Part shown: piece after piece, positions 4,810 through 27,368 of the stretch
Numbering within the stretch: the stretch's first letter is position 1
Layout of the letters: every line of letters begins with the position of its first letter
From: Eledone cirrhosa
Lineage: Eukaryota
Direction of reading: 5' to 3'
Assembly: GCA_964016885.1 (NCBI GenBank)
Contig: OZ024743.1
Span: 31,806,001 to 31,870,000 of the forward strand
Length of the DNA stretch: 64,000 nt
The notes under the pieces: generated by a model
What the model saw: only the letters and a program-made list of their open reading frames with translations
The model's database searches: none
What the model was told of the DNA's origin: nothing
Made by a program: the position numbers and the translations under genes

Positions 4810-4949
4810 GTGATGATGATGATGATGATGATGATGATGATGATGATGATGATGATGATGATGATGATGATGATGATGATTATAGTAATAATAATAATAA
4901 TAATAATAATAATAATAATAATAATAATAATAATAATAATAATAATAAT
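4810..4949. repeat. compound (GAT)n(AAT)n microsatellite at the left edge of the retrotransposon nest
   Basis: Directly visible. Confidence 0.98.
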
Positions 4950-5004
4950 TATATAATGAAAATATATATTAAACATACGAACACAAACTCATAGATACTA
5001 TATC

Positions 5005-5140
5005 AGTAACCACAACACCACCGCTGCCACCACCCCACCACATCCATCATCGCCGCCACCACTCATTCAATGCTACTGACACTATTCCCCTGTTAACTTG
5101 AGAGAGAAAAGGGAAGGTGGCGGTAGCACTTGACAAGAGA
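5005..5140 (+). repeat. fragment related to element X
   Basis: CATCCATCAT..CTGTTAACTT..GGGAAGGTGGCGGTA.CACT.GACAA is shared with 14915-15040. Confidence 0.65.
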
Positions 5141-5462
5141 GAGGCTAGCAAAAGATATAAATAGATTGACTTGGTGACCTTGCCACGGACAAACGTCTAC
5201 ATCAACAATTATGGGACTGCTGGCTCACCCCTTCCTCACCAACAATATAAAAAGCCCCGACACCACCACCGACATAGCCAGCAGCAATAACAGCCAACTA
5301 CAACAAAAAGTATATTATATTATTGTAATGCACTGGGTGATTGTTGGCCTTGTGCCTGGAGTGGAGACAATTATTAATAATTTCATTCTTAAGCCACGCA
5401 ATGCTCACATTAAGGAACCACTCATGATAATAACAATTTTTAAAAAAACAACAAAAAGAAAA

Positions 5463-23561: not shown

Positions 23562-26500
23562 ATGACCTCACTCAGAATAGGCAGCATAAATGCGCGTGGC
23601 TTGGGGTCGTCATGGAAGCAGGGTCACCTGCTCAACGACCTCAGGTCACTAAACATAGATGTAGTGGCCATCAGCGAGACCAGAATCTCCGAAGCACGGG
23701 CCTTCGCACCGGTCTTCGGCGGCTACGATGTGTACGCATCTCCCAGCCGTCCTGGATCGGGGGGAGGAGTTGCTGTGCTTTTTCGGAGAGGTTTGGATCT
23801 CGCCATGCGGGTATCTTCCTGGACCCAGAGGGTAAGCTGGTGGTGCTGGACGTGACCAGCGGAGACGGGCAAGCTTTCAGGCTAGTGGCCGTCTATGCCC
23901 CGACAGGAGCAGGGCGGCCTGATTTCTTCCGGCGTCTGGAGACCTTTCTTGGAACGTCCCGCTCTTTAGTGTTAGTGGGCGACTGGAACGGGATCTTAGA
24001 TGCACGCTGGGACTGTGTGGGATTAGCGGATAGGGGCGGAGGATGCAAGAGCCTCACCAACCTGCTCAGGCGTTTTGAACTGTCTGACAGGTACCGATTG
24101 GATTTCCCGAATGTGCCAATGGGGACTTGGACAAATCGCCCTAGGGTCATCCAGATCATATCTAGATAGAGTATTTTGTAGGGTAATAGATATGTCTAGC
24201 ATAGGATGTCCACAATTCAAGATAGTAAGCTACACGGACCACAAATTCGTGATCTGTGTGCTTGACTTAGATAGGCTTCATAGACGAGGACCCGGCTACT
24301 GGAAGCTAAAGGCGTCCTTACCAGCGCGCAAGGCCTACAGAGACCGGATTAGTGAACTAGTTAAACGGGCGTTGACGGGGGCCATCGTCAACAACAAGTG
24401 GTGGTTTGCTCTGAAAAGAGCGATTAGAATAGAATCCATTAGGTTTAGTAAGGCTTTAGCAATAGAGAAAAATAGCGCAGAGGGATAACTAGTTAGAAAA
24501 TTAGACGAGGCGCTTAGCAAAGGCATTGCGACCGACGTGCTTGCGGCGAAATTGGCCCTTGACCAATTCTTCAATGCAAAGCACGAAGGCTGCGTTGTCA
24601 GAGCAAGGGTGCGTGCTCTCAGACACAAGGGGACGAAAGCCGTTCAATGGACCCGAGTGGCGGAGGCGCGTCGTGGCAACAAAGCCACGATCCGGTCTTT
24701 GGTGGACCACGACGGGCGCATGCTACTCGATCCCGGGCAAATGTGTGAAGCTTTTCAGCGACACTTCGCTCAGCTGTTCGGGGGCAGAGGTGGGCCGGGT
24801 CGAGGGATGGACTTTAGTGTCTACCTCGACGGACTGCCGCGGCTCTCGGCCACTGAGGCGAAGTGTTGCGAAAAGCCGATAACAGCCGCTGAAGTAAGGG
24901 AGGCAATGACTGGCTGCACAAGGGGTAAATCGCCTGGTTTGGATGGTTTGCCCTATGAACTTTACGTACAGATGCCAGACTTGTTCGGGGGCCTCTTGCG
25001 GACGTCTACTGCAACTGGCAACATAACGGGAGAATTCCCAGTTCTGTGAGACGAGGAGCGGTGGCACTGCTGAGAAAGGATCCGAACAAGGGGGATAACA
25101 TAGATAATTTCCGGCCCATAACTCTACTAAACACAGAGTTCAAGATTTTGGCCAAGGTGCTAGCAAAGAGGCTGGCGCTTGTCGTTCGTGGTCTGGTAGG
25201 AGAGGCGCAGACATGCGCCATTCCCGACAGATCCATCCACGACAACCTCCACCTCATGCGATACATCGTAGAGAGGGTAGCTAGGGAACCTGGTACGGGT
25301 GGGTCCTTGATCAATTTAGATCAGTCGAAAGCTTTCGATAGGGTCGACCATCGTTACCTAGCGTCAGTCCTGAGGGCGGCTGGCTTTGGGCCCGTCTTCA
25401 GAGGCTGGATCGCTGCCATGCAAAGCGACATCTGCTTTGTGGTGAGAGTGAACGGTCACCTGTCGGAACCGTTCAACATCATGCGCTCGGTCCGCCAAGG
25501 ATGTCCCCTCTCGTCCCTCTTGAACGTATTAACTCTTGAGCCATTACTGCACAAACTGGAGACGTTGAGGGGGTTCCCGCGCGAACTAGGATGCGGAAGA
25601 TCCGTGTCAGCATATGCGGACGATGTCACCCTAGTGGTGTCGAACGCCAAACACATCGAAGCGATCGGCACTACACTAAGAGAATATGAAGCCGTGACAG
25701 GAGCAATGATCAACCAGGAAAAGTCAGTGGGCCTGCAGCTCGGCACCTGGAGAGGCAGGTCCATGCCGTCCAACAGCGTCGTCGGACGCTGGACGGACGG
25801 ACCGGTTAAATTGCTGGGGGTCTGGTTCGGTCCGGACCTCCAGACGGACAAAAACTGGGACGAGGTGACGAGCAGGGTGGCTTCTCTCACCCAGAAATGG
25901 GCCGAGAGGAAGCTATCCCTGAAAGGTCGAGCGGAGGTGGCTAACGCGTACATCGCGTCTGTCATCTGCTACCGCCTGACCGTCGTACCTTGTCCTAAGC
26001 CTCGCCTGACTGCGCTGGAGCGTTTGCTCTTTCGCTTTTTGTGGAAGGGACGTGCTCCGATGGTCAGGCGGTCCATCTGTTGTCAACACCCGCTACATGG
26101 AGGGCTGGGCATGCCGTGGCTTATGATGCGCAGGCACGCGCTCAGGCTACGACATCTCCACCTCTTCCTCGACGGTGATCAGGTGTGGTCGCCGTTTGCT
26201 AGGCGCGTATTTCCTCAGCTCGTTTCCTTGACGGAGCTGCAGTCCTGGGTCAAGTGAAGACCGAGAGGGAGCGCCTGGAGACTGGAATGTCTTCAGGCGC
26301 TCACAGCCCTCGACCAATCGGGCAATGTGATCGGTGGAAACCCACCTCGGCGTTCTATAGAGGATTAGTGGAGGGGAAGAGCGACGACGTACTTGGGGAA
26401 ACTCTAGGCGTCGACGAAAATCAACTAGCCAATCTCTTCGGAAGAACTTTCGGGCCAGGGCCTATGGACAACTTCCAGAAATCTCTGGCCTGGCAGTGCT

Positions 26501-26979
26501 ACCGAGGAGCCTTGCCAGTTCGGGATAAACTCTACAGGCATGGAGGTGCCGTCAGCCGGGCATGTCCGAGATGCGCGCAGGGCGACGAAACCGTCCTGCA
26601 CGCACTCGTCCAGTGTCCGAAAATTGCTGACTTGTGGGTTTATGTCGAACACCTGCTGTCGCGTTTAGGACGGATCCGGCTATCATCTGAGTCCATCGTG
26701 AGGATTGCCCCGCCCTCCTCCTTTAGCCAGAAAGGGCAGGCAGTTATTATCTGTCTGGTGGCCATGGCGAAAGAGATAGTATGGTGGACACGTTTGAAAG
26801 GGTTGAAGACGAGCACTTACCTCTTCGGTGATGCTCTGATTGACTTTTTCAAATTTCATTTGAAAAGGAAAATCAGAGTAGAGAGGGAAGTGCTCTCTTC
26901 CCAGCATTTTGTTGAAAGATGGGTGAGAGAAGCAAGAATGGCCCGAGTGAATGGGCCTACTCTGAGTATATATCTGTAA
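23562..26979 (+). pseudogene. Tx1 ORF2 APE endonuclease-RT-zf, several frameshifts/stop
   Basis: APE motifs SINARG, ISET, GDWN, LDRV, TDH. RT motifs SPGLDG, FRPITLLN, DQSKAFDRV, RQGCPLS, AYADD. C-terminal CPRC..ETVLHALVQC. Split over at least 6 ORF fragments. Confidence 0.92.
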
Positions 26980-27230
26980 ATTAAAGGTGGAAAACTGGGA
27001 GAGGGCACTTGCCTTGGTGGTCAGGGTCATTGTGGCTTTTTACTGGGCTTTCTCCACAAATCTCCCTCCGAAGTCTCCCCCCTATTGGGGAATTTTTCAT
27101 TGTTATTTTTTGTTACATCCTCTGTTTTTGTTTTTTACACGCAGAAATGCCCATTTGTACCGTCCTGCATTGTCCTGCACTGTCCTTAATGTCTACTTTA
27201 TGTAAACCCTTGTGGTTAATAAAGAAATCA

Positions 27231-27368
27231 TTATTATTATTATTATTATCATTATTATTATTATTATTATTAATATTATTCTCTTCTTCTTCTTCTTCTT
27301 CTTCTTCTTCTTCTTCTTCTTCTTCTTCTTCTTCTTCTTCTTCTTCTTCTTCTTCTTCTTCCTCTTCT
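27231..27368. repeat. (TAT)n(TCT)n compound microsatellite at the right edge of the nest
   Basis: Directly visible. Confidence 0.98.

Follow-up and report, generated by a model that had tools for sequence, protein, structure and literature searches.

Dong elements of the R4 clade have been reported to insert into (TAA)n in insects, molluscs, and cnidarians (PMC3812793, PMC7998251), and this targeting is already known. Microsatellite-specific insertion has also been described for the Tx1 elements Kibi, at (TC)n, Koshi, at (TTC)n, and crocodilian Tx1, at (TTCC)n/(TTTC)n (PMC4494074). Arrays in which two families lie in opposite orientation within one simple repeat are described for TRAS and SART of Bombyx (PMC10088271), and the use of one target by an RLE and an APE lineage, with occasional tandem insertion, is described for Utopia and Keno at U2 genes (PMC4640811).

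The window analyzed here, i.e., the whole 64-kb stretch of DNA, contains an array at 4886-27271 in which elements account for 21,764 of 22,386 bp. As an earlier note on this DNA had recognized, the array is almost contiguous and consists of nine R4/Dong-type copies or fragments from two families (A and B) and one Tx1-type LINE (T); the coordinates of that note, 4810-27368, extend over the (GAT)n run on one side and the (TCT)n run on the other. The elements are joined by 12 AAT/ATT tracts of 18-93 bp, 163 units in total, and all 12 of the tracts with at least six units in the window lie inside the array, with none outside. The parts are as follows.

4807..4880, plus: (GAT)n run, left edge, compound microsatellite
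4886..4948, plus: (AAT)21 tract, target for the left arm
4958..9395, plus: A1, nearly full-length copy of family A (R4/Dong), truncated leader
4958-5377, plus: A1 leader remnant, distal part of the shared leader and SINE tail
5623-9257, plus: A1 ORF, two in-frame stops
9396..9422, plus: (AAT)6 AAC (AAT)2 tract
9423..10225, plus: A2, family A, 5′-truncated, 96.6% identity to A1
10226..10249, plus: (AAT)7-8 tract
10254..11552, plus: B1, family B, 5′-truncated, older 3′ end variant, 93% identity to B4
11553..11645, plus: (AAT)31 tract
11646..14196, plus: B2, family B, 5′-truncated, 97.4% identity to B4
14197..14226, plus: (AAT)10 tract
14228..14291, plus: B3, ~64-bp B 3′ end, terminal variant that of B4, not of B2
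14292..14336, plus: (AAT)15 tract
14337..19303, plus: B4, family B, full-length, leader at 14337-15685 (X1 of the earlier note)
15792-19217, plus: B4 frame, 1141 codons, uninterrupted, predicted Myb-like, RT, CCHC, and RLE domains
19304..19345, plus: (AAT)6 then (AAG)6 TAG AAG, where the left arm ends
19346..20429, minus: broken B element without 3′ end, polarity switch, 17-bp local duplication at the break
20429-19476 and 19469-19361, minus: the two parts of that element, a leader of X2 type and, joined to it, an internal piece of 109 bp
20430..20480, minus: (AAT)17 tract
20481..20749, minus: B5, 269-bp B 3′ end
20750..20809, minus: (AAT)19-20 tract
20810..21149, minus: A3, 340-bp A 3′ end
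21150..21205, plus: (ATT)18 tract, common to the 5′ ends of A3 and Tx1
21206..27229, plus: T, full-length Tx1-type LINE
21422-23527, plus: T ORF1, CCHC knuckle
23562-26979, plus: T ORF2, APE, RT, and zf-RVT, frame broken by frameshifts and stops
27230..27277, plus: (ATT)6 ATC (ATT)7 tract, 3′ of Tx1
27282..27369, plus: (TCT)n run, right edge

The earlier note had counted 12 elements by treating two "X" copies as elements of their own. However, all 30 X hits continue into B or A, which identifies X as the 5′ leader of their full-length copies, and a separate X family is thus rejected. X1 and the B ORF form one full-length element (14337-19303), and X2 and the 109-bp piece form one broken minus-strand element (19361-20429), which leaves ten elements. 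Their lengths do extend up to full length as the note stated, whereas the shortest R4-type copy measures ~64-67 bp rather than 55 bp.

The assignment of A and B to the R4 clade is consistent with their coding capacity. B4 encodes a single ORF with an RT (RVT_1, E 8e-23), within the ~1100-1200 aa range of the clade, and A1 has the same layout apart from its two stops. At the C-terminus, CxxC...H...C, RHD, and PD...D motifs can be read, which we take to be the CCHC/RLE pattern, and a weak second stretch of the protein aligns with the C-terminal region of R2; the R4-type ORFs gave no match to an APE family, as expected for R4. The nearest solved structures to the RT are R2 (E 1.6e-30), with L1 behind, and no clade name appeared among the 120 matches listed. 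For the Myb/SANT-like domain without zinc fingers that is expected at the N-terminus in this clade, the model (pLDDT 77) matched many Myb/SANT structures, all at Z below 8. Among these are Zeste (Z 6.0, rmsd 2.3 over 62 aligned residues) and TRF1 (Z 5.7, rmsd 3.5 over 64), whereas a Foldseek search with this model returned nothing at E ≤ 0.001. The (TAA)n target and the layout of one ORF encoding RT and RLE, preceded by a Myb-like domain (putative in our copies), recall Dong, DongAG, and DongBG; in contrast to those elements, at least three AAT-targeting families (A, B, and C) co-occur here in mixed arrays, and A and B share a 0.7-kb leader.

Approximately 700 bp of leader are common to A and B although their proteins are only 39% identical, which suggests leader capture. 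No A copy without the shared leader was recognized among 30 older-subfamily loci, many of which are truncated; repeated leader exchange is not supported, and a single event is not rejected (AU p = 0.385). Mammalian L1 elements undergo 5′ UTR/ORF1 replacement, in which a new 5′ module is placed on an existing RT body with ladder-like subfamily turnover, whereas the donor here is likely another active family, at the above protein identity and within the same arrays. Bombyx Dong carries a 5′ HDV-like ribozyme (PMC3774820). In the A/B leaders, Rfam found no ribozyme family, a descriptor of HDV-like ribozymes run without a positive control gave no 5′-end match in nine leaders, and the folding z-scores are unremarkable.

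T starts at 21206, directly after (ATT)18. Its ORF1 contains a CxxCx4Hx4C knuckle, and its ORF2 contains an N-terminal APE (Exo_endo_phos, E 1e-5), RVT_1, and a C-terminal zf-RVT motif, i.e., the Tx1 architecture; its RT is nearest the L1 group (L1 ORF2p E 1e-31 vs. R2 E 4e-17). The Tx1 label rests on architecture and on the specificity for a repeat target that characterizes this clade; no named Tx1 was among the 120 matches listed, and the ESM Atlas returned generic RT names only. As a two-ORF, microsatellite-specific APE LINE of the L1 group, T resembles Kibi, Koshi, and crocodilian Tx1. It differs from these named elements, as far as the sources describe them, in its (ATT)n target, which is complementary to that of Dong, and in the two alternative 5′ halves found on one ORF2. 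The earlier note had treated T as a passenger; however, T has its own ATT targeting, since (ATT)n precedes all 30 full-length 5′ ends, window copy included, and follows 51 of 52 3′ ends. Of the tracts that precede 29 full-length T copies, 16 have 6-8 units and only two have fewer than six. A metagenome scan recovered 34 distant relatives (24-48% identity), of which only one has an ATT tract, and these are therefore silent on conservation of the T target.

The array is not built on the single (AAT)n microsatellite that had been proposed, but consists of two arms of opposite polarity. The left arm (4886-19321) contains seven tracts with AAT on the plus strand, and the right arm (20430-27271) contains five with ATT on the plus strand. 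The arms meet tail to tail at a broken junction (~19346-19361) marked by (AAG)6 and the 17-bp local duplication; an AAT tract is absent from this point. The locus may have arisen when a deletion fused two opposed arrays and took with it the 3′ portion of the B copy on the minus strand. By inspection, twin priming or a simple inversion is rejected as the origin of the switch, because the missing B 3′ part is absent from the left edge and because the leader retains its own AAT tract.

The polarity follows a rule in the window and elsewhere. In the window, (AAT)n follows on the sense strand of all eight R4 copies whose 3′ end is intact, as the earlier note had observed. Overall, 353 of 361 tracts adjoining R4 pieces are AAT in the sense direction, the eight exceptions being compound or leader-internal tracts, and all 143 tracts adjoining Tx1 pieces are ATT. 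At 3′ ends, AAT follows A in 61/61 cases and B in 99/101 (the other two being AAT then ATT, and degenerate AAT). With 27 internal deletions left out, 79 of 82 5′-truncated R4 starts directly follow AAT and 16 of 21 truncated T starts follow ATT, with none of opposite polarity in either group. An interrupted 15-bp target is duplicated around one T copy (L048). When 104 elements were screened for TSDs, the overall result was no better than that of shuffled pairs, and there was no excess for A, B, or C (B, 6 vs. a shuffle mean of 3.5 and maximum of 7; T, 1 vs. 1.4; A, 0). Among ten full-length T copies, six of which have the 3′ end within the fetched stretch, no informative duplication and no informative interruption was found.

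The earlier note had presented the locus as exceptional and had named random flanks and solitary copies elsewhere as the outcome that would speak against a self-extending array. Neither holds: similar arrays occur genome-wide, with flanks that are far from random, as the truncated R4 starts indicate. All 20 of the A-anchored 20-kb loci contain at least two elements (2-8, median 5; at least five in 12/20), and several arrays run off the 20 kb. Young copies with the highest scores served as anchors, and picking loci by element favors large arrays; the automatic counts contain a few false hits to SINE tails and one chain that was split, and a recount by eye also gave a median of 5. A neighbor lies within 350 bp of 24/29 B, 23/29 A, and 20/29 T 3′ ends, and of 22/29 leader and 18/29 T 5′ ends. 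In 79 position-picked 10-kb windows, of which young copies make up 3.3%, the 23 free tracts have 4-9 units each, and every tract of at least 11 units adjoins an element. Young copies also lie between older ones, e.g., a 99% A copy between 93% and 96% B copies (L191/192).

Many interstitial arrays thus likely arose from repeated insertion of R4/Dong-type and Tx1-type elements into one AAT/ATT microsatellite. R4 elements have AAT on the sense strand and Tx1 has ATT; if both insert by TPRT, the ATT strand would be the one nicked by the restriction-like endonuclease of R4, and the AAT strand the one nicked by the APE of Tx1. Each insertion would split the tract in two and then re-lengthen it through target duplication (~15-20 bp, by the Tx1 machinery), repeat units at the RNA 3′ end, and slippage. 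More elements would therefore mean more targets, and further insertions would be attracted. Such target regeneration is indirectly supported. AAC-interrupted terminal units of B recur in 22 and 19 copies of two variants, and the tail is therefore partly element-borne. We infer array growth from one assembly.

Alternatively, the arrays may mark fixed hot spots without self-reinforcement, where tracts were long from the outset or insertion is tolerated, a reading that we consider unlikely. The array sizes fit a rich-get-richer model (p ~0.75), yet they also fit a plain Poisson distribution with a mean of 4 (P = 0.47 for 12/20), and 5/5 sampled windows with young arrays are on the two largest contigs, both as fixed hot spots would have it. 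However, splitting alone would shorten tracts, whereas the tracts inside arrays (n = 100) have a median of 9.5 units and exceed the free ones (n = 23) in length. The mean-4 Poisson would leave ~2% of sites empty, whereas two free 9-unit tracts were seen against five array windows; these empty tracts are all that speaks against it.

Growth by tandem duplication, unequal crossing-over, or co-mobilization of read-through neighbors appears highly improbable as a general account. One contig (C2) does carry seven A copies at ~4911-bp spacing, the six fetched being 99.1-100% identical, and structure is the same within the pairs L049/L050 and L016/L017. In the window, B3 and the end of B2 form a 95-bp two-copy repeat; B3 nevertheless shares its terminal variant with B4 and not with B2, which favors an insertion over a local duplication. 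Further, the window copies differ in truncation points, identity (93-98%), and terminal variants, the three families alternate, and by inspection the truncation points at the other listed loci are unlike those of the window. Concatenation by the assembler at AAT runs is the least credible explanation, although mis-joins at tracts would preserve the polarity rule. In public data (three contig sets of one sample and two RAD-seq runs, repeats skipped), the array is not spanned by any record, and the junction at the switch lies within skipped repeat. Against a concatenation, the tracts are merely 18-93 bp, the left flank is single-copy (one match) with even depth of ~8-10, arrays recur at all 20 anchored loci and in unselected windows, and identical junction sets were assembled twice, in nearby duplicates.

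Compared with the known systems, the repeated-insertion arrays resemble TRAS/SART in the fixed, opposite orientation of families within one simple repeat. However, TRAS and SART are telomeric and both R1/APE, whereas the arrays here are interstitial and dispersed, bring together RLE with APE clades, and are not known to serve the host. Unlike a telomeric array of the TRAS/SART or HeT-A type, this locus lies 31.8 Mb from the start of a contig of 378.8 Mb and contains neither TTAGGG nor TTAGG arrays, in line with the interstitial position first suggested for it. RLE and APE lineages converge on one target as in Utopia/Keno; theirs is a site in a gene, whereas the microsatellite used here would be multiplied by the insertions themselves. 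In our literature search, no report was found of an ATT-targeting Tx1, of mixed-clade interstitial arrays of this kind, or of the shared A/B leader. More tentatively, and with the balance of our judgment against it, R4, Tx1, and a Tx1-borne SINE might form a self-amplifying guild that shares the microsatellite in opposite polarity, multiplies its target, and fills a few percent of the genome, with arrays in which 5′ modules are swapped (B-to-A leader capture, Tx1 ORF1 exchange).

Most long AAT tracts in this genome are junctions of elements, a point to consider when markers are designed, and repeat-repeat junctions could mislead tools that call new insertions. An octopus study reporting few new Dong insertions used such a tool (PMC9115989), which may have been misled in this way. 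If repeated insertion is correct, the arrays would provide thousands of natural replicates for rich-get-richer tests and for ordering family activity, and would allow a comparison of two unrelated endonucleases reading one repeat. Target-specific LINEs would then not be bound by a fixed number of sites, as insertion multiplies the microsatellite target, and this would explain very high copy numbers in a normally site-limited clade.

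The array of elements at AAT/ATT runs that the earlier note described is real, but its anatomy as first described needed correction. Based on self-alignment, ORFs and Pfam, the array spans 22,386 bp, of which elements make up 21,764 bp. Its tracts total 163 units, and all 12 tracts of at least 6 units in the whole 64 kb lie within it.

Order of features in the window array and positions of a related SINE
Left arm, plus strand: (AAT)21, A1, (AAT)6, A2, (AAT)7-8, B1, (AAT)31, B2, (AAT)10, B3, (AAT)15, B4 (14337..19303), (AAT)6(AAG)6
~19346-19361: polarity switch
Second arm, ATT on the plus strand: broken B, (ATT)17, B5, (ATT)19-20, A3, (ATT)18, T (21206..27229, +), (ATT)6+7, (TCT)n
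643-791: SINE copy
27852-28012: SINE copy
33120-33277: SINE copy
43151-43902: SINE copy
50262-50448: SINE copy

The polarity switch carries a 2.5-kb internal deletion, with the 3′ part gone, and a 17-bp templated duplication, and is read as a putative repaired break joining two opposed arrays. Switches were found at other loci too, in some cases coinciding with compound (AAT)n(ATT)n tracts (L008/L011, L071, L141). The window array is among the larger ones sampled, a size that two fused arms would explain. The site is interstitial, as had been proposed, given its position (C4:31,806,001-31,870,000) within a contig of 378.8 Mb (genome, 3.0 Gb) and the absence of telomere repeats from the window. 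The array has a single-copy left flank, and its right flank consists of a common repeat; directly to the right lies a palindromic, MITE-like dispersed repeat (27500-27810) with many genomic copies at 90-95% identity. In the public data compared, which comprised two RAD-seq runs and, from a single sample, three contig sets, no record spans the array, and its contiguity rests on the assembly.

Families A and B each encode RT and RLE in one ORF and share 39% identity over 804 aa. T carries APE and RT and has a pair of ORFs, L1 being nearest among solved structures; the clade labels of all three are based on architecture and target. The mix of repeats would fit a cephalopod genome: among the molluscs surveyed in one study, R4-Dong types are almost confined to cephalopods (PMC10294476). 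A third R4-like family, C, is present in arrays with AAT-type tails (20 loci; L257:2770-4939 and L364-L383, ~65% nucleotide identity to A). T also has a second 5′ half with its own head and an ORF1 ~50% identical in amino acids, fused to the same ORF2 at 88-95% identity; the switch lies ~80 bp before the ORF2 start (L191:3642-5701, L195, L205, L208, L231, L252), and ATT is immediately upstream in 5/6 copies. Elsewhere in the window, a 5′-truncated copy of another R4-like family (58331-60282, minus strand; 36-41% aa identity to B) is bordered by ACAT/ATGT-based minisatellite blocks (58091-58330 and 60283-61940). An (ACAT)n-type run was found at the end of 9/10 other copies checked, two of which continue directly into further R4-like sequence; these copies probably mark another microsatellite niche, one that harbours arrays of its own.

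T is target-specific, like the R4 families. Its 5′ end in the window lies at 21206, and (ATT)n was found upstream of all 30 fetched full-length 5′ ends and downstream of 51/52 3′ ends. ATT also precedes 16 of 21 truncated T 5′ ends (11 internal deletions left out), and truncated R4 copies start directly after AAT in 79/82 cases (16 internal deletions left out). Across all sampled tracts, the sense strand carries AAT for R4 in 353/361, bearing out the polarity first noticed in the window, and ATT for T in 143/143.

An abundant SINE of ~190 bp (116 matches in 790 kb of sampled windows) has a T-like 3′ end and an ATT tail, and is often found in tandem or within arrays with the same polarity as Tx1. 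It is likely mobilised by T, i.e., a Tx1 passenger. Its tail adjoins 4 of 40 sampled tracts, so that it is a possible seed of new tracts, and a fragment of the tail lies inside the leader of A (5325-5377).

The two ‘X copies’ had been taken for a separate element. Among the best 30 of 40 scored matches to X1 (14337-15685), the window copy counted, all 30 continue directly into the 5′ end of B (28) or A (2), which rules out X as a family of its own and identifies it as a leader of B and A. For some of the leaders linked to A and to B, identity is 93% over 704 bp, and variants inside one family diverge by up to 25%. A tree of 51 leader heads requires two label changes and does not reject a single A clade (AU p = 0.385). 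In a quick tree built from 39 heads, with two older B heads as the root, the 17 A heads fall inside B diversity with one change. The simplest reading would be one leader capture, probably from B to A, a direction that depends on the two outgroup rows. B4 itself looks like a mosaic, since its body is 99.4% and its leader 95.9% identical to the nearest sampled copies. At the 5′ junctions of five loci (L065, L069, L080, L087, L171), the leader's initial 6-25 nt are repeated as short copies, which suggests repeated template jumps as cDNA synthesis ends; the (AAG)n runs that commonly flank arrays may have been seeded by such copies. In older B leaders (L199, L206, L217, L059), the internal repeat number varies, with ~440-bp units present up to three times, resembling monomer turnover in LINE promoters.

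The window array is one of many, and the locus is ordinary for its genome. Of 29 A loci outside the window, 20 were fetched with 10 kb on either side; at least two elements were present at 20/20 (median 5), several filling the 20 kb, and the copies are clustered rather than solitary, as the earlier note expected. In 79 position-picked 10-kb windows, copies at ≥85% identity cover 26.4 of 790 kb (3.3%), mostly from 5 windows; scaled to the genome, this comes to some 100 Mb, an estimate with a wide error. When contig depth is summed, the elements exceed the unique flank by a factor of about ten thousand, a ratio that is not a copy number. On contig C2, a homogeneous tandem in which at least seven full-length copies of A recur every ~4911 bp (G000:C2:353,612,437-353,642,233; L358-L363), six fetched copies of which are 99.1-100% identical with (AAT)7-8 between them, points to tandem amplification or assembly expansion. 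Nearby duplicated loci (L049/L050 and L016/L017) share the same element junctions, and some of their tracts differ in AAT length, which fits slippage following the duplication.

Target, polarity and clustering are observed directly; insertion would proceed by TPRT, with R4 and T nicking opposite strands, and each insertion would regenerate the AAT/ATT target. Internal tracts have a median of 9.5 units and free tracts have 4-9 units, which favours regeneration, since splitting alone would shorten tracts. Also counted in its favour are one T copy with a 15-bp interrupted target duplicated on both sides, the clustering of the tract upstream of T at 6-8 units, the heritable AAC-interrupted tail units of B, and the SINE, whose insertions at ATTAT show target duplications of 12-21 bp in 15/35 copies vs. 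0.4 in shuffles. On the other side, the TSD screen taken as a whole showed no excess over shuffles, none of ten T copies checked for duplications was informative, and array sizes, while compatible with a Yule model (p about 0.75), also fit a Poisson distribution with mean 4, all three counting against regeneration; a Poisson whose mean is at most 2 is ruled out (P ≤ 3e-6).

In the published literature, Dong targets TAA (PMC3812793, PMC7998251), Tx1 elements target TC, TTC and TTCC (PMC4494074), TRAS and SART show opposite orientation (PMC10088271), and Utopia and Keno show convergence (PMC4640811). One study names Dong-R4 and L1-Tx1 among TE hotspots and LINEs with recent activity in octopus, and the text consulted contains no target analysis (PMC13282606). 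The literature searched yielded no report of interstitial mixed RLE/APE arrays, of a leader common to two R4 families or of an ATT-targeting Tx1; part of this may already be on record in Repbase/Dfam or in the first publications on Dong, R4 and Tx1L. The array is a variant of known target-specific retrotransposon arrays, and what makes it interesting is the pattern across the genome, together with a Tx1 that uses the opposite strand and a leader common to A and B, rather than the single window locus.
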